A DNA stretch of 64,000 nucleotides, taken from NCBI GenBank assembly GCA_021738485.1, contig JAIPBX010000001.1, positions 4,702 through 68,701 of the forward strand. Direction: 5' to 3'. Shown one piece after another: positions 10,989 through 19,119 of this stretch (position 1 is the stretch's first letter; the number at the start of each line of letters is the position of its first letter). Made by a program: the position numbers and the translations under genes. The stretch is from Bacteroidales bacterium (GTDB lineage: Bacteria > Bacteroidota > Bacteroidia > Bacteroidales > JAIPAH01). A model generated the notes under the pieces. The model was not told the origin of the DNA. It was given only the letters and a program-made list of their open reading frames with translations, and did no database searches.

Positions 10989-11075
10989 TAGCCCCGCCAG
11001 GACTCCCCGCCCGAACTACTGACGTCATTCAGTCGGGCAGGGAACCTGGATCTAAGGTTTAGGAAACCTCTATTC
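10989..11075 (-). pseudogene. 3' fragment of tRNA-Arg(CCT) (nt 22 to discriminator) carrying a T-loop hairpin insert
   Basis: The reverse complement is GAATAGAGGTTTCCTAAACCTTAGATCCAGGTTC[36-nt insert]GAGTCCTGGCGGGGCTA. It is collinear with the intact gene from G22 onward. The first 6 nt overlap the stop of the GIY-YIG ORF. Confidence 0.8.
11006..11041. repeat. GC-rich hairpin mini-element, subtype B, in the T-loop of the tRNA-Arg fragment
   Basis: The sequence cccgcccgaactactgacgtcattcagtcgggcagg is inserted between the C and G that are adjacent in the intact gene (ggactc|gaacc). Confidence 0.8.
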
Positions 11076-11318
11076 TTTCTTAATCTTTTTAGTTAAATAC
11101 CTTCTACCGGCGGCAGTCTTAAAATATTTTTCACGCTTTATTGCTTCTTGCCGGGTTGAAAAAACCTCATAATAATATAACTTCCACGGTATAAAAGCTT
11201 TTGTGGATTTTGTCTTTCCTTTGTTATGCTCATCAATCCGGTCTTCCAGGTTTTCACAATGACCTTTGTAATATCTTTTATGGCTCCGACTATATAAAAC
11301 ATATGCATAGAAAGGCAT
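11070..11318 (-). CDS. small GIY-YIG nuclease family protein (UPF0213-like)
   Basis: 82 aa. FYAYVLYS...YYKGHCENLEDRIDEHN...EAIKREKYFK carries the GIY / YIG / R / E motif series. It starts 19 nt downstream of tRNA-Arg on the same strand. Confidence 0.8.
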   Translation of the reverse strand: MPFYAYVLYSRSHKRYYKGHCENLEDRIDEHNKGKTKSTKAFIPWKLYYYEVFSTRQEAIKREKYFKTAAGRRYLTKKIKKE

Positions 11319-11337
11319 ATCGGGTTAGTTTTATTAG

Positions 11338-11409
11338 TAGCCCCGCCAGGACTCGAACCTGGATCAAAGGTTTAGGAAACCTCTATTCTATCCCTTGAAC
11401 TACGGGGCC
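11338..11409 (-). tRNA. tRNA-Arg (anticodon CCT)
   Basis: The reverse complement GGCCCCGTAGTTCAAGGGATAGAATAGAGGTTTCCTAAACCTTTGATCCAGGTTCGAGTCCTGGCGGGGCTA gives a 72-nt cloverleaf. The anticodon loop is TTCCTAA and the T-loop is TTCGAGT. Confidence 0.9.
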
Positions 11410-11533
11410 AAATTTTTACGTAAAATTAAGAACTTTTGCTAGCAACCTTAAGATCTGCTATTTCTTATCGTTACCTTACCTGGATTCTTTTACTCAAACC
11501 TGGTAAAGTATTTAACAAATCCCGCCAGGACTC

Positions 11534-11565
11534 CCCGCCCGAACGTACCGTTCGGTACGGGCGGG
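11534..11565. repeat. GC-rich hairpin mini-element, subtype A, in the T-loop
   Basis: The sequence cccgcccgaacgtaccgttcggtacgggcggg has perfect 8-nt terminal arms. It sits at the same C|G site as 11006..11041. Confidence 0.8.
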
Positions 11566-11599
11566 GAACCTGGATCAAAGGTTTAGGAAACCTCTATTC

Positions 11600-11635
11600 C
11601 CTGCCCGAACGACTGATGTCATTCAGTCGGGCGGG
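11600..11635. repeat. GC-rich hairpin mini-element, subtype B, at the D-loop/D-stem junction
   Basis: The sequence cctgcccgaacgactgatgtcattcagtcgggcggg is near-identical to 11006..11041. It is inserted between ctctattc and tatccc. Confidence 0.8.
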
Positions 11636-11716
11636 TATCCCTTGAACTACGGGGCCAAATTGGCGCTGCAAAATTCTAAAAAATATCGCGCTAATGCAAG
11701 CGACCTTATGGTTTAT

Positions 11717-13783
11717 CTAACGGACTTCCGATCCGTTATCCAGATTCTTATCCGGCTGGATGAAGCTAAGCTGACCGTTGGCATCTTCGGCCATGAGTAT
11801 CATCCCTTTCGATTCGATACCTTTGATTTTCTTGGGCTCCAGGTTGACCAGGATGCTTACTTTCTTCCCGACAATCTCTTCCGGTTTGTAATATTCGGCA
11901 ATCCCCGAAACGACCGTTCGCTGATCAATACCGGTATCGATTTTCAGTTTCAGTAATTTCTTGGTTTTCGGGACTTTTTCGGCCTCCAGGACCTCTCCTA
12001 TCCGAACATCCATTCCGCTAAAGGTCTCGAAATCAATATTCTCTTTCGCCGGTTTGACTTTTGCATTGGTTTTTTCATTCGCCTTGCGGGCCTCGATGAG
12101 TTTGTTTTTCTGGCCGGTGACCACCTCATCTTCGATTTTTTCAAACAAATGCTCCGGCTTGTTAAACTGATGCCCTTCAGAAATGATGTCTATCCGTCCG
12201 GCATCATCCCATTCAAGCATTTCAATATTCAGCATTCTTCTGAGGCGTTCGGCTGTGTATGGGATAAATGGCTCAGCCAGCGTACTCAGGTTGGCACATA
12301 TCTGCAGTGAAAGATTCATTATGGTCTTCACCCGTTCCGGATTGGTTTTCTGCAATTTCCAGGGTTCGTTATCCGTCAGGTATTTATTTCCGAGACGTGC
12401 CAGCATCATCATTTCGTTGAGCGCTTCCCTGAGCTTGTAGTTTTCTATTTTATCAGCGATCCGCTCCGGGAATGTTTTAACTTCTTCGCTCACTTGCTTG
12501 TCTTCCTCCGTCCATTCACCGGCTTGGGGCATTGTTCCGTCGTAATACTTTTTAGTCAGCACCATGGAGCGGTTGACGAAGTTGCCGAAAATGGCCAGCA
12601 ATTCGTTGTTGTTTCGTGCCTGAAAATCTTTCCAGGTGAAATCATTGTCTTTTGCTTCCGGGGCATTCGCAGTAAGCACATACCTTAACGTATCTTCCTT
12701 TCCTGGAAGTTCTTCCAGGAACTCATGCAGCCATACGGCCCAGTTGCGGGATGTCGAAATCTTATCGTTTTCCAGGTTCAGGAACTCGTTAGCCGGAACG
12801 TTATCCGGGAGGATGTAACTGCCTTCCGCCTTCATCATCACAGGAAAGATGATGCAATGAAAAACAATGTTGTCTTTCCCTATAAAATGGACAAGCTTAC
12901 TATCCTCGCTTTTCCAGTATGGCTCCCAATCGATGCCTTTTTCCTCCGCCCACTCCTTGGTGGCAGAAATATAACCAATTGGTGCATCGAACCATACATA
13001 CAGGACCTTGCCTTCCGCTCCGGCACCCTCTACCGGAACTTTCACACCCCAATCAAGATCGCGGGTCACCGCCCGCGGCTTGAGGCCCGTATCAATCCAC
13101 GACTTCACCTGCCCATAAACATTACTTTTCCAGTCGTGCTTGTGTCCCTCCAGAATCCATTTACGAAGCCAGCCCTCATACTGTTCGAGCGGCAGATACC
13201 AATGCTTGGTTTTGCGCAGCACCGGCTTGTTTCCACTTATCATCGAAACCGGGTTAATCAATTCTCGCGGACTTAGCGCCGTTCCACAGCTTTCGCATTG
13301 GTCGCCATAAGCTTTGTCATAACTACACTGAGGACAAGTCCCCATGATGTACCGGTCTGCCAAAAACTGCTGATTCTCCTCATCAAAATAATTTTCCTCT
13401 TCCTTTTCTATAAACTTGTCTTTGTCGTAAAGTTTCTTGAAAAAATCAGCCGCCGTCTCGTGGTGGATAGGCTTGGAAGTACGCGAATACACATCAAAGG
13501 AAATCCCCAGCTTTTCGAATGATTCATAATTCAGTTTATGATAGCGATCTACGATTTCCTGCGGCGAAACCCCTTCCTTCTTGGCCTTCAAGGTAATAGG
13601 CACCCCATGCTCATCCGAACCGCAGATGAAAGCCACATCCCGGCCTTTGGCCCTGAGATAACGGGAATAAATATCCGCCGGGACATACACACCGGCAAGG
13701 TGCCCGATGTGAATCGGACCGTTAGCATATGGCAGTGCTGCCGTAACCGTATAACGCTTTGGCTGTTTTTTTTCCATGTTCAA
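11717..13783 (-). CDS. metG: methionine--tRNA ligase
   Basis: 688 aa. It has the HIGH motif ([14 protein letters not shown]), a KMSKS-like motif (KISTSRN), a Zn knuckle ([18 protein letters not shown]) and a C-terminal Trbp111-like tRNA-binding domain. Confidence 0.95.
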
Positions 13784-13877: not shown

Positions 13878-14375
13878 TTATAAAATTTTAAATACACAAA
13901 TAACAACGAAAGCAACTAACTGTATACCAATAAATATCCCTGATTTATTATAATATCTGAATTTTTTATCTGCTATTTTTGATACCTCATAAACCTGGTA
14001 TAGAACATCATCCAAAAACTCGTTTTCTTCAGTCTCTTTGAAATCGGTACGATATTCCAGCGCTTTGTTCCGTTGAGAGACATGATGATGATAAATTAAT
14101 TTTGGCACTGACATGTCCGTATTGGAAGCATAACGTGGGTAAATGGTTAAAAGAGCAAAAACAATAAACAAAAGAAATGCTATCAGAAACACACCAATTA
14201 AGATTTGTGCAGGTAAACCAATTAATAAAAGCGAATTGAAATTAGTCAAAACATAGGTTGTCGATATACCACTGATCACTAACAAGAATTTGATTTTAGA
14301 ATCAGCAAATTTTACCATATCCTGGTTATTTATCAGGATTTTCCAGGCGAAATCTATTTTATCTTTATCATTCAT
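13878..14375 (-). CDS. small membrane protein with DUF5706 / Pycsar-effector-like domain
   Basis: 165 aa. NNQDMVKFADSKIKFLLVISGI is followed by two TM helices, a soluble stretch (YPRYASN...LYQVYEVSKIADKKFRYYN) and a last TM helix. This matches my recollection of the DUF5706 layout (..L..ADnKAn + TM ... KY..l). Confidence 0.55.
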   Translation of the reverse strand: MNDKDKIDFAWKILINNQDMVKFADSKIKFLLVISGISTTYVLTNFNSLLLIGLPAQILIGVFLIAFLLFIVFALLTIYPRYASNTDMSVPKLIYHHHVSQRNKALEYRTDFKETEENEFLDDVLYQVYEVSKIADKKFRYYNKSGIFIGIQLVAFVVICVFKIL

Positions 14376-14440
14376 GTAAATTTATTATAATTTGGTTTAT
14401 TAAAATTAATACTTTCAGATAGTAAAATTCCATAAAATAA

Positions 14441-14908
14441 TTGAATTTGAATAAGGAGAATCACTATATTTTCATGGCAGATATTATTAAAAGCCGAAGC
14501 AGAGAAGGTTCTGAACTTATGAAAGGCTTCAGGTATATGGTCGAAGAAACCACCGTTCAATACAAGTCCAAATTCATTTCCCCATTAACCATTACCCTTG
14601 GCGACGAATTTCAAAGCATCGTGCAATCCCTTCAAGACGGAATAGATCTGATTTTTCTAAAAGACAAAAAACTAACCGATTACCTCAATCAGCTCTTTTT
14701 TATCTACCACTCCATAATCAGCCACTGGAGCAGAAAAGATTATGAAATAATTGGCTACTTTATGCAATTAAAAGACTATAAAAAAGTAGCTGAATGGGCC
14801 GGAAGAGATGTTTCTTCTGCCTGGCGAAAACAAAAGACCCTAAGAATGAAAGAATACTTCACCGTTAAAAACCTTATACAATCAATGACCTATGAATCCT
14901 TTGAATGA
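14441..14908 (+). CDS. SatD-like protein (short form: N-terminal DIxxSR...GDEFQ module plus C-terminal HTH-like region)
   Basis: HYIFMADIIKSRS and LTITLGDEFQSIV are the two hallmark SatD motifs. The tail (YEIIGYFMQLKDYKKVAEWAGRDVSSAWRKQKTL) looks like an HTH. The frame opens at TTG 14441, right after an in-frame stop; the first ATG is at 14474. The protein is shorter than the roughly 200 aa I recall for typical SatD. Confidence 0.5.
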   Translation: MNLNKENHYIFMADIIKSRSREGSELMKGFRYMVEETTVQYKSKFISPLTITLGDEFQSIVQSLQDGIDLIFLKDKKLTDYLNQLFFIYHSIISHWSRKDYEIIGYFMQLKDYKKVAEWAGRDVSSAWRKQKTLRMKEYFTVKNLIQSMTYESFE

Positions 14909-15023
14909 AATGTTTATCAAAATCGGGGTCATAATAATTGGAGAGCTTTTGCTTTTCCCTACTTTCTGATTTTTCAGTAAATTATTTCTATCTTGTGAAC
15001 AAAACAAACAGAACCTCAATATC

Positions 15024-15800
15024 ATGATAGCATTGCCAATCAAATTAACTTATCTTGTTTTTAGTTTTTATTTCCTGCTAGGGAATTCTCTCTTTGCCCA
15101 AGATTATACTAGAGCTATAAATGCCAGAATAAAAACTCAAACAACTACAACCAAAGTAAAGACTATCAATAAGTTAGCCTATAATCAAAAAAGGACTTCA
15201 CTGGCTAAACCTCGAATTAAAGAAGAAAAAGAACGACTTAAAAATTCCAATGAGAAAAATAACAACCTCTTAGAAGCAGTTAATCAACGATATAGAGTCT
15301 TGAGAGTCCTTTGGCTAAGCATTATAATTCTTTTCCTAATTACCATAGCCTATTTTCTGAAAAAGAAAGAAAAACAACAAAACATATTTCGCAATACTTT
15401 TGCTAAAGATGGAAAAAGTGAGTTGATCCAACGAATGCGAAATGAACATAATGCACAGGTTATAAGAAACAATTTAAAGGAGAAAGCAGACGGAGCTACT
15501 ATCGATAAAGTCATTAAGGATTTACAACTTAGCAGTAACAATACTTTTGATGAAGATTTCCTGATGATTTATCATAAAGTAGATGAGGAATTTTTTCCAA
15601 AACTCCGCAAGAAACACCCCAGCCTTACTAAACACGACCAAGTCCTTTGTGGAATGATTAAAATGGGACTTGATTCCAAACAGATAGCCCACATCACCTT
15701 TCGCAGCCCCGAAAGCATCCACGTAGCCCGCAGCCGACTAAGAAAAAAGCTAGCCATTATGGCAAAAGAAGATTTGGGGCTGTACATTCAGCGTATCTAG
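15024..15800 (+). CDS. membrane-anchored LuxR/GerE-type HTH regulator
   Basis: It has an N-terminal signal/TM segment, a central TM segment (VLWLSIIILFLITIAYFL) and a C-terminal LTKHDQVLCGMIKMGLDSKQIAHITFRSPESIHVARSRLRKKL. Confidence 0.6.
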   Translation: MIALPIKLTYLVFSFYFLLGNSLFAQDYTRAINARIKTQTTTTKVKTINKLAYNQKRTSLAKPRIKEEKERLKNSNEKNNNLLEAVNQRYRVLRVLWLSIIILFLITIAYFLKKKEKQQNIFRNTFAKDGKSELIQRMRNEHNAQVIRNNLKEKADGATIDKVIKDLQLSSNNTFDEDFLMIYHKVDEEFFPKLRKKHPSLTKHDQVLCGMIKMGLDSKQIAHITFRSPESIHVARSRLRKKLAIMAKEDLGLYIQRI

Positions 15801-16080
15801 TTTTTGAAAGTGTAGTATCAAATGAATAGTTTTTTCGTCATGTTAAGGTCGTGTTAAGGTAAATTTTTTCTTCTGCTTCGATTGTTTTAATATATTTCGA
15901 GCCATAGTAAGGATAATTAAAATCTATTATCTCCACTGCTATCAAGCCACAAGACAGGTGATTAAGATTAACAAATCATAGAACCAAGTGGAGCAGAAAC
16001 CACTATAAAAACTGAGCGATACCGAAAAGCTTTATGAGTAGGATAACCAAATACCATTTATTCACTTAAAATCAATTATT

Positions 16081-16692: not shown

Positions 16693-19119
16693 TTACTCCC
16701 ACTTCACCGCATCCACCATATTGCCATTAGCGGCTCGTACGGTATGGTAGCTGATAGATAACAATCCGATAACTACAGAAGCAATTCCGGCTATGGCAAA
16801 GGCAGGCCAGGAGATATCTATCGCATACACGAAGTTGTTTTGCAGCCAGTTATCAAGCCCCCACCAGGTAAGTGGAGCGGCCAGAGCAAACCCGATGAGA
16901 ATAAGCATGGCGAATTCTTTATACAGCAAAACCAGGATATTGGGAACCGACGCCCCCACCACTTTGCGTATGCCGATTTCTTTTGTTTTTTGCTCGGCAA
17001 TGAAGGATGACAGTCCGAGTAACCCGATGAGTGCTATGAGCACCGTGATTACCGTGGCAATGTGGAAGATGACGCCGGTTTTTTGTTCGGTTTCATACAT
17101 CTCGTCCAGCGACTGGTCAAGAAACTGGTATTCAAAGGGCCTTTTCGCTCCCATTTCATGCCATTTTTCTTCGATAAAGCTCAGGGTAGATGCGTTGTTT
17201 CTGCCGTTGGTTTTTACGGTGATTAGACCCTTCGAAATGTCGTCGTGGATAAACATCATCAGCGGCTGAACCTTGTTGTGGAGTGAGTTGTAGTGATAGT
17301 CTTCGATAACGCCGATGACCTTCAGCACACGGCCACCCTCCCCCTGCGGGTTGAACCCCCAATGAATTTTTTTACCAATAGGCTCTTCCCAGCCATACTG
17401 TTTTACCGTGGTTTCATTCACGACCACTGCCTCAGTGGCATCGGTGCCCATGTCCTTCCTGAAAAAGCGTCCTTTTACCACGTCAATATCATAGGTCTCC
17501 AGGTAATCGTAATCCGGAATGCAGATGATCATGGCATCATCAATCATTTCCGTCTCTTTTTCCATTCGGACCACCTGAATCCAGCCGGTTTGCCCCGGTA
17601 CGCCGGTTGCCGTGGTTGCATTCACAATGTTCGGATGACTCAGCAGCTCTTTTTTGAAGGTTTCGCCGCGACTTCGGAAGGTGGAGTCCTGCAGCTCCAT
17701 AACGATCATGTTTTCTTTCTGGAAGCCTAGGTCTTTATTGCGCAGGAAGCTTAACTGGTTGGAAATAACCAGCGTCCCTATAATCATCATAATGGCAATC
17801 CAGAATTGGATGACGACGAGCAGTTTACGCAACCGGCCACTTCCTCCGGCTTTACCCGACATGGTTCCTTTAAGCACTTTAGACGGATTGAAGGACGACA
17901 GGTAGAAAGCGGGATAACTGCCCGCCATTAATCCGATAATCAATGCCGTCCCAATGACTTCCAGCCACAGGCCGATGTTAAACAATGCCGAATATTCCAG
18001 CTCTTTACCTATCAGCGTCTGGAAACTCGGGAACAAAAGGTAAACCACTAAAAAGGCAATGACCAGTCCAACTGCCGTAAGGATAACCGATTCGCTGAGA
18101 AACTGGTTGATGAGTTGTTTGCGGTGTGCCCCCGCCACTTTCCGGATGCCCACTTCTTTAGCTCGCTTCACCGAACGGGCCGTAGCCATGTTCATGTAGT
18201 TGATAGCTGCGATAATCAAAATAAAAAGTCCGACTGCCGAAAAAATGTAGAGATACATTTTATTTCCCTTGGGCTCATCGGCCGAATAATTACCTTCGAA
18301 GTGCGTATCGGCCAGGGGCGTAGACATCAACGTGAAGGATGAGTTGATTTGGTCGCCGATAGATTTCATGTACTTATCATAAAACGAAGGGAACTTATTG
18401 TGAATGGCATCGATGGATGTATTTTCCTTTAGCAGGACATACGCGTAGACTCCAATGTTCCAGAAACTAACAGGCTCCGTGGTGTTGAAACGTTCTTCGC
18501 CCATACGTGCAGCCAGGGTGGTAGCCGAAAAAAGCCCGTCGAATTTCAGGTGGGAATTGGCCGGTAAGTCTTCGATTACACCGGTAACCTTAAACTGATT
18601 GTTCTCTGCATCCAGCAGGATTTTACCCAGTGGATTTTCATCTTCAAAATATTTCTTTGCCTTTGATTCGGTCAGCACTACCGTATTGGGTTCGACCAGG
18701 GCGGTTTTAGGATTTCCCAGAATCATCGGGTGCGAAAAAACAGCAAAAATTGTAGAGTCGGCAAAAAAGAAATCCTTTTCGTACGATTCCTTGTTTTCGT
18801 ATCGAAGGAGTTGATTACCGGCATCCGAAAACCTGACAAAACTTTCTATTTCCGGGAATTCTGTCTTCAGCGTCGGGGCCATGGGGATGGGCACGATACC
18901 AAACTGATCGTTCTTGCCGGAGATGGTAAAATTGGATTCCAGCCGGTGAATGCGGTCATGTTTTTCATGATATTGGTCATAACTGGCTTCGGTTCGCACA
19001 TAAATCAGAATTAAAATAAAGGCTGCCAGGCCGACCGTAAGGCCGATAATATTCAGAAAAGAGTAAAACTTGTTTTTGGTGAGACCTCTCAGGGCGGTTT
19101 TCAGATAGCTGATAATCAT
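16693..19119 (-). CDS. ABC transporter permease, double FtsX/MacB-type
   Basis: 808 aa. It has two FtsX modules (KEVGIRKVAGA..., KEIGIRKVVGAS...) and MacB-like periplasmic domains. An N-terminal TM follows LTKNKFYSFLNIIGLTVG. Confidence 0.85.
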   Translation of the reverse strand: MIISYLKTALRGLTKNKFYSFLNIIGLTVGLAAFILILIYVRTEASYDQYHEKHDRIHRLESNFTISGKNDQFGIVPIPMAPTLKTEFPEIESFVRFSDAGNQLLRYENKESYEKDFFFADSTIFAVFSHPMILGNPKTALVEPNTVVLTESKAKKYFEDENPLGKILLDAENNQFKVTGVIEDLPANSHLKFDGLFSATTLAARMGEERFNTTEPVSFWNIGVYAYVLLKENTSIDAIHNKFPSFYDKYMKSIGDQINSSFTLMSTPLADTHFEGNYSADEPKGNKMYLYIFSAVGLFILIIAAINYMNMATARSVKRAKEVGIRKVAGAHRKQLINQFLSESVILTAVGLVIAFLVVYLLFPSFQTLIGKELEYSALFNIGLWLEVIGTALIIGLMAGSYPAFYLSSFNPSKVLKGTMSGKAGGSGRLRKLLVVIQFWIAIMMIIGTLVISNQLSFLRNKDLGFQKENMIVMELQDSTFRSRGETFKKELLSHPNIVNATTATGVPGQTGWIQVVRMEKETEMIDDAMIICIPDYDYLETYDIDVVKGRFFRKDMGTDATEAVVVNETTVKQYGWEEPIGKKIHWGFNPQGEGGRVLKVIGVIEDYHYNSLHNKVQPLMMFIHDDISKGLITVKTNGRNNASTLSFIEEKWHEMGAKRPFEYQFLDQSLDEMYETEQKTGVIFHIATVITVLIALIGLLGLSSFIAEQKTKEIGIRKVVGASVPNILVLLYKEFAMLILIGFALAAPLTWWGLDNWLQNNFVYAIDISWPAFAIAGIASVVIGLLSISYHTVRAANGNMVDAVKWE

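Follow-up and report, generated by a model that had tools for sequence, protein, structure and literature searches.

A PycTM gene and a satD deletion allele upstream of metG in a Bacteroidales genome: probably neighbours by chance

In a 64-kb stretch of a Bacteroidales genome (the window, whose coordinates are used throughout unless another locus is named), two small genes lie back to back beside metG, the methionyl-tRNA synthetase gene. One encodes a 165-aa membrane protein of the DUF5706 (PycTM) family of Pycsar effectors, and the other encodes a 155-aa SatD-like protein. A preliminary description of this DNA proposed that they form a minimal two-gene module for signalling or abortive infection, with SatD as a cyclase-like sensor or regulator and PycTM as its output. 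Do the two genes work together, or do they merely lie together? Both open reading frames (ORFs) were confirmed at the positions first described, divergent and 65 bp apart (Table 1), and both family assignments held. The functional module did not: the window satD is a deletion allele and the pairing is not conserved. The two genes have probably come together by chance, in a variable and rearrangement-prone spot beside metG, instead of making up a new defence module.

The window satD gene is an internal-deletion allele

The 155-aa protein matched the Pfam SatD family (PF16264) with 37.3 bits against a cut-off of 29, the match being split into two stretches. A custom SatD hidden Markov model (HMM) gave 197 bits, also in two domains (positions 2-68 and 128-209), and profile positions 69-127 of 210 are absent, in agreement with the earlier remark that the second half of the N-terminal domain is missing. 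Every SatD homologue in the 81-95% identity range has a length of 214 aa. Compared with the 95%-identical protein P0002, which is encoded by the related locus L004, the window protein lacks one contiguous block of 61 aa, P0002 residues ~70-130. The DNA of the window and that of L004 are 96-98% identical and align in two overlapping blastn blocks; 183 bp of L004 (about 976-1148) are absent, in frame, from the window satD. At the junction, where the sequences were read directly, the imperfect direct repeats ATGATTTT(C) and ATGGTTTTT stand on either side, as is typical when slippage between short direct repeats deletes DNA.

Among 113 SatD proteins, 33 positions are at least 95% conserved, and 13 of these fall in the deleted block. 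These near-invariant residues include R86, G92, N99, M106, G108, G110 and R115, and the full ~210-aa SatD architecture with its R86 / N99 / G108-x-G110 / R115 block is therefore not present in the window. Like other members of the family, the window protein keeps its N-terminal motifs, MADIxxSR and TITLGDEFQ, as well as its helical domain at the C-terminus. It retains β1-α1-β2-β3 and part of α2; unlike them, it has lost β4, α3 and β5.

The deletion allele was found in at least two metagenome-assembled genomes (MAGs) at NCBI, as MCF8230551.1 (also on a 110.6-kb Logan contig) and as MCF8333344.1. These accessions are consecutive with MCF8230550.1 and MCF8333343.1, which are identical to the window PycTM protein. 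Since two MAG proteins and a Logan contig share the allele, an assembly artefact was ruled out.

NCBI calls the start of the window satD either at TTG 14447 (153 aa) or at ATG 14474 (144 aa). It had been suggested that the gene may be decaying, in view of the missing segment and the TTG start. The 61-aa deletion supports this suggestion; the start codon was discounted, for L004 has an identical start region and yet encodes an intact SatD. The window satD also differs from the rest of the family in that its upstream region has been replaced, a feature that, like the TTG start, is common to L004: the 65-bp spacer is identical there, and the DNA preceding satD in loci L014 and L001 bears no relation to it. 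Two PADLOC matches of the window SatD, to PDC-S26 (E 1e-3) and CARF3 (0.02), were set aside as spurious, and intact homologues fail to reproduce the PDC-S26 match. We infer that the SatD remnant is non-functional.

The PycTM-SatD pairing is not conserved

A scan of GTDB species genomes detected at least 572 SatD-encoding species, from which the best 80 loci were retrieved. Within 4 kb on either side of SatD, PycTM was found at none of these 80 loci from other species, either with a narrow HMM or with a broad HMM of 120 sequences (E ≤ 10). The same two HMMs found no PycTM near SatD in the loci L001-L003, L005, L014 and L015. Conservation of the pair in other genomes, which the idea of a module implied, was thus not borne out; only L004 shares it.

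The survey from the PycTM side gave the same picture. More than 120 stand-alone PycTM homologues of ~166 aa exist, and among the PycTM loci examined a SatD neighbour is common only to L004. At L009/L010, L011-L013, L094-L097, L100-L102 and L104, the gene abutting PycTM on the same strand matches a custom PycC HMM. Representatives of these cyclases score above the Pfam cut-off for Guanylate_cyc and match the PADLOC PycC model (5e-59 and 6e-53). In all, about 10 PycTM relatives have a true PycC beside them. The loci are of the canonical Pycsar kind, and some of them have two cyclases; their PycTM proteins, 41-51% identical to that of the window, are its closest non-orthologous relatives. Gaps between PycTM and cyclase measure 0-44 bp. 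The window agrees with the canonical two-gene operon in that the PycTM component is present and intact; it differs in that the partner is not PycC, is divergent instead of co-oriented and abutting, and is broken. As separate observations, two consecutive PycC-like genes follow PycTM at L011 834-2181, L094 1988-3335 and L101 4004-5351, and a GmrSD gene adjoins the Pycsar locus in L011/L012. Multi-cyclase Pycsar-1 loci have been remarked on in a 2026 preprint.

Orphan PycTM genes were found in L006 (beside metG), in L007 (with IS66 on either side) and in L098, L099 and L103. The last three (L098 3989-4465, L099 3974-4456 and L103 3501-4004) are 38% identical to the window PycTM and lie on large contigs of Ignavibacteria type, with a fused 2-oxoacid dehydrogenase E1 gene alongside and no cyclase nearby. 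With them, a conserved PycTM without a cyclase is seen a second time, independently, in housekeeping surroundings. A conserved link between PycTM and metG in L098/L099 was considered and rejected: the 660-696-aa neighbour first guessed to be MetG is the 2-oxoacid dehydrogenase E1.

The metG locus itself occurs in three states among the relatives. In L014 and L001 the order is metG-satD-satE, with no PycTM and 109-167 bp at its place. L006 has metG-PycTM-Vut_1 and no satDE. The window and L004 have metG-PycTM-satD. PycTM alone, satDE alone and both together are thus found at one and the same locus, which indicates that the two genes vary independently.

The PycTM protein is intact and probably an orphan effector

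The assignment of the 165-aa protein to DUF5706/PycTM proved correct. It scored 42.6 bits against Pfam PF18967 (cut-off 27.2), and residues 3-164 matched positions 2-154 of 160 of the PADLOC PycTM profile PDLC02364 (E 3e-28). Several PADLOC models of CBASS/Pycsar '2TM effectors' were matched as well. The AlphaFold2 model (predicted local distance difference test, pLDDT, 92.1) is all-helical, with long hydrophobic helices at 3-44, 54-78 and 117-164, and with short helices at 96-114 forming a small soluble segment between the second and third transmembrane (TM) helices. This is the layout given in the preliminary description. Hydrophobic stretches can also be seen in the sequence itself. The model contains no β-barrel cyclic nucleotide-binding domain. 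Foldseek returned no significant match to it (best E 1.2), and no solved relative, in the copy of the PDB that was searched.

In the literature, PycTM proteins are three-TM effectors activated downstream of PycC or PucC, and a Pucsar member of the family assembles into a hexamer around a central channel (bioRxiv 10.64898/2026.08.12.744502). The PycTM papers found mention neither SatD nor orphan effectors. The window protein resembles these effectors (the 'pJV1-spdB3 family 3TM') in matching their HMM over its full length, in having the ~166-aa size of relatives encoded beside PycC, and in its predicted three hydrophobic helices with a helical soluble insert. It differs from them in having no PycC or PucC alongside or elsewhere in the window, and in lying upstream of metG in a housekeeping neighbourhood, with apparently vertical inheritance. 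In a Pycsar operon the effector is accompanied by a PycC-type class III cyclase; here the neighbours of PycTM are metG and the satD remnant.

The ORF is full length and retains all residues that are invariant in the family. Compared with the L006 orthologue, the ratio of non-synonymous to synonymous substitution rates (dN/dS) is 0.106. The proportion of synonymous differences (pS) from L006 is 0.69 for PycTM and 0.75 for the adjacent metG, both of which are saturated. That PycTM is as saturated as metG fits a long co-inheritance of the two genes, without SatD and without an adjacent cyclase. On the evidence of sequence comparison, PycTM is best read as an intact, conserved orphan effector under purifying selection.

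It could be argued, on the contrary, that both genes are decaying relics, PycTM being the non-functional leftover of a Pycsar system that has lost its cyclase. The lack of an adjacent cyclase and the position of PycTM in an AT-rich, rearrangement-prone spot, with insertion sequence (IS) activity in relatives, are consistent with this. We nevertheless find the explanation improbable, given the full-length ORF with every family-invariant residue, a dN/dS near 0.1 relative to L006 (in which the gene is likewise an orphan) at saturated synonymous divergence, and the syntenic conservation of orphan PycTM in other phyla.

Intact SatD resembles class III cyclases in fold

The preliminary description had likened two SatD motifs to the metal-binding strands of class III nucleotide cyclase and GGDEF palm domains. 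This likeness was upheld at the level of fold on intact P0002. The P0002 model (pLDDT 92.4; predicted template modelling score 0.90) has an N-terminal β-α-β-β-α-β-α-β domain (1-131) and a five-helix C-terminal tail. In a Foldseek search of the PDB the best match was 4wpa_B, the adenylyl cyclase Ma1120 (E 7e-5, probability 1.00, TM-score 0.57, root-mean-square deviation 2.6 Å over 122 columns). The top 50 matches were mostly catalytic domains of class III adenylyl and guanylyl cyclases; Ma1120 was followed by Rv1900c, RhoGC and soluble guanylyl cyclase, and then by GGDEF domains and GTP cyclohydrolase III. The invariant D12 of SatD ends β1, and the invariant G52-D53-E54-F55 lies in the β2-β3 hairpin. 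By their place in the topology, D12 and G52-D53 would probably correspond to the metal-binding Asp pair, and GDEF to the GGDEF signature, as known from class III cyclases and GGDEF proteins. A class III cyclase / GGDEF-type palm fold for the N-terminal domain of intact SatD is thus supported by the model.

The likeness does not extend to sequence. SatD had no match to PF00211, PF00990 or any PADLOC model including PycC, alignment with PycC by hhalign gave a probability of 0.06%, and the SatD profile had no match among PDB sequences at E ≤ 10. No literature on the function of SatD, or on a link between SatD and cyclases, was found. SatD further differs from class III cyclases and GGDEF proteins in being fused to a helical domain and not to sensor domains. 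This domain, the helix-turn-helix (HTH)-like tail of the preliminary description, appears in the model as five helices. The label HTH comes from sub-threshold matches only, and the domain is probably an HTH. While the SatD family may be regarded as cyclase-like by its modelled fold, the window allele has no β4-α3-β5. It cannot form a complete cyclase-like domain and hence would offer no signal generator for PycTM.

The membrane partner of SatD is truncated in the window

At ~70 of the 80 SatD loci, a membrane ORF of 105-130 aa follows satD on the same strand, at a gap of -28 to +27 bp. This satE-position family is marked by the motifs KGxxER, FGALKxxTRL and NDYxLxGN. In L014 (2966-3310) and ~70 other loci the residues E18, G46, E49, R50, K72, T75, G93, N94 and S97 are invariant. 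The partner had no consistent Pfam or PADLOC family and was accordingly ruled out as a known effector; it was also rejected as a cryptic PycTM (hhalign probability 0.1%).

Searches with tblastn found the partner intact, at 109-114 aa, in L014, L001/L002 and L015. The close relatives of the window at the metG locus thus carry a complete two-gene operon of the satD-satE type, whereas the window has no translationally coupled downstream membrane partner. In its place is an ORF of 25 codons, of which the first ~18 are homologous to the partner in L014, L001 and L015, and L004 likewise keeps ~18 codons. Synteny with L014 resumes at window position 16694, which indicates that a ~1.75-kb segment with a luxR-type gene, a DUF805 RNA motif and yccF replaces the body of the partner gene.

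In L005, a more distant Bacteroidales locus with a 64% identical SatD, no coupled satE-like ORF was called; a convergent ORF of 174 aa without a Pfam match (L005 6748-7272, minus strand) follows satD. In L004 an IS element with HTH_29/HTH_32 and a DDE_3 transposase (1616-2811) interrupts the luxR-type gene at the equivalent of window position ~15112, which points to ongoing rearrangement at the locus.

Proposed history of the locus and alternative explanations

The arrangement is probably explained by two unrelated cassettes placed back to back between metG and an ABC-permease gene. The first would be the orphan PycTM, a member of the three-TM Pycsar/Pucsar effector family that stands alone upstream of metG here and in the diverged L006. 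Most likely it still works as a membrane-permeabilising effector gated by nucleotides, the signal being supplied by a cyclase encoded elsewhere, or else has been domesticated for another membrane role. The second cassette would be a wrecked satD-satE operon, whose ancestor presumably encoded SatD and a translationally coupled membrane protein of ~110 aa. In the common ancestor of the window and L004, the luxR-type/yccF insertion would have cut this membrane partner to ~25 codons. Later, in the window lineage, slippage between direct repeats would have removed 183 bp of satD, and with them β4, α3, β5 and the 13 near-invariant residues.

Several observations weigh against a chance juxtaposition. 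L004 carries an intact 214-aa SatD beside PycTM with its satE-like partner already truncated, so that a period of functional coupling between SatD and PycTM is possible. The deletion preserves the reading frame of the window satD, and in the codons that are left non-synonymous changes relative to L004 are not in excess (dN/dS 0.135, only ~17 substitutions). According to the model, the C-terminal helical domain of the truncated protein is complete and could still bind DNA in the 65-bp promoter region that the two genes share. Of the SatD-bearing species, at least 572 in number, 80 were surveyed, along with ~20 PycTM loci, and the PycC HMM detected no PycC-like ORF in the window, these 64 kb being the only part of the genome searched.

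The first of these points, together with the in-frame deletion that spares the C-terminal domain, the dN/dS of satD and the persistence of the deletion allele in at least two MAGs, would suit an effector swap in the L004/window lineage. After loss of the satE-like gene, intact SatD would have been coupled to PycTM as a signal generator or as an HTH regulator, and the window allele would be either a recent loss or a trimmed regulator of the shared promoter. Such a swap seems unlikely to us. The arrangement is limited to one species-level lineage, an in-frame outcome is expected by chance in one case of three, and the substitutions are too few to show constraint. In addition, PycTM is equally maintained without SatD in L006, and the HTH call comes only from matches below threshold.

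A broader proposal, which we think quite unlikely, holds that SatD is an active, highly divergent cyclase/GGDEF-like signal generator with a putative HTH. Together with its small three-TM partner it would form a widespread, undescribed nucleotide-signalling module analogous to Pycsar, in at least 572 GTDB species, mostly of Bacteroidota; in L004 and the window the partner would have been replaced by a captured PycTM, and the hybrid would later have collapsed. A working two-gene module in the window is highly improbable: its divergent genes 65 bp apart, the cyclase-like fold and invariant Asp pair of intact SatD, the bona fide nucleotide-activated effector family of PycTM and the intact pair in L004 are outweighed by a SatD that lacks half of its cyclase-like domain, by the failure to find the pair at 80 further SatD loci or at any other PycTM locus examined, by the occurrence of each gene alone at metG in relatives, and by the lack of PycC sequence similarity or a PADLOC match in SatD. 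A pairing that is not conserved and a truncated satD are two of the three outcomes that the preliminary description had itself named as refuting the module, which is thus unsupported. Chance juxtaposition beside metG remains the explanation that we prefer.

Implications for defence annotation and for SatD

A candidate new defence system is not upheld, and a false lead is thereby removed. What the locus does indicate is that Pycsar-type TM effectors can persist for long as orphans, maintained by selection among housekeeping genes: beside metG here, and beside the E1 dehydrogenase gene in Ignavibacteria. Such orphans suggest cyclic-nucleotide signals received in trans, or roles of the family outside defence. 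For the annotation of defence systems, it follows that a PycTM match alone does not indicate a Pycsar system. SatD, for its part, is a widespread family with a cyclase/GGDEF-like modelled fold, an Asp/GDEF signature, a probable HTH and a membrane partner, which together give a concrete biochemical hypothesis. The copy in the window is unsuited to testing it.

Layout of the locus and neighbouring features

The features of the locus are listed in Table 1. PycTM and metG are on one strand, with PycTM 94 bp upstream of metG. The region had been described as an AT-rich islet of 13.9-15.8 kb. The islet is real, and it reaches further than stated, to ~16.6 kb: GC content is 0.30-0.37 across ~13.8-16.6 kb, compared with 0.45-0.50 in the flanking metG and the downstream permease gene. 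By gene, GC content is 0.305 for PycTM and 0.475 for metG, and PycTM is AT-rich in the window and in the L006 lineage alike. A promoter and terminator scan was disregarded, since the sigma-70 consensus on which it relies says nothing useful about a Bacteroidales genome.

Table 1. Coordinates of the features at and around the PycTM-satD locus in the window
Feature	Position	Strand	Evidence
metG (methionyl-tRNA synthetase), conserved anchor gene of the variable locus	11717-13783	-	
PycTM / DUF5706 gene, 165 aa, ATG start	13878-14375	-	Pfam PF18967, PADLOC, AlphaFold2
Divergent AT-rich intergenic spacer, 65 bp, between PycTM and satD remnant	14376-14440	.	Read from sequence
satD deletion allele, 155 aa, TTG start	14441-14908	+	Pfam SatD PF16264, two stretches
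satD deletion junction, 183 bp missing relative to L004	14646-14655	+	blastn blocks overlap by 10 bp; junction read
satE-position partner remnant, 25-codon ORF overlapping the satD stop	14892-14969	+	tblastn
~1.75-kb AT-rich segment in place of the satE-like gene body, relative to L014	14945-16693	.	Synteny breakpoints
LuxR-type membrane-anchored regulator gene	15024-15800	+	Pfam, NCBIfam
DUF805 RNA motif	15983-16048	+	Rfam RF03081
YccF-domain gene, within the ~1.75-kb segment	16081-16539		Pfam, NCBIfam

The membrane-anchored LuxR-type protein matches GerE below threshold (19.1 bits against 23.5), and its C-terminus is similar to regulators of the BT3442 family. In L001 a gene downstream of satDE encodes a 613-aa TPR-GerE protein, and the part for the C-terminus of this protein aligns with the LuxR-type gene at 71% nucleotide identity. 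The DUF805 RNA motif reaches 71.6 bits, the gathering score being 51.1. Immediately downstream of it comes the YccF-domain membrane gene, which is not a DUF805 gene, and the motif is a candidate cis-regulatory RNA.

On the other side of metG, a tRNA-Arg(CCT) gene (11337-11409, minus strand) has partial copies on either side, in the region 10993-11661. A repeat of 42 nt is found at 11034-11075, 11347-11388 and 11558-11599, and exact repeats of 26 nt (11389-11414 and 11636-11661) and 24 nt (10993-11016 and 11521-11544) are also present. An 82-aa GIY-YIG ORF (11070-11318, minus strand) lies between the copies. The region looks like small GIY-YIG cassettes inserted with duplication of the tRNA end.

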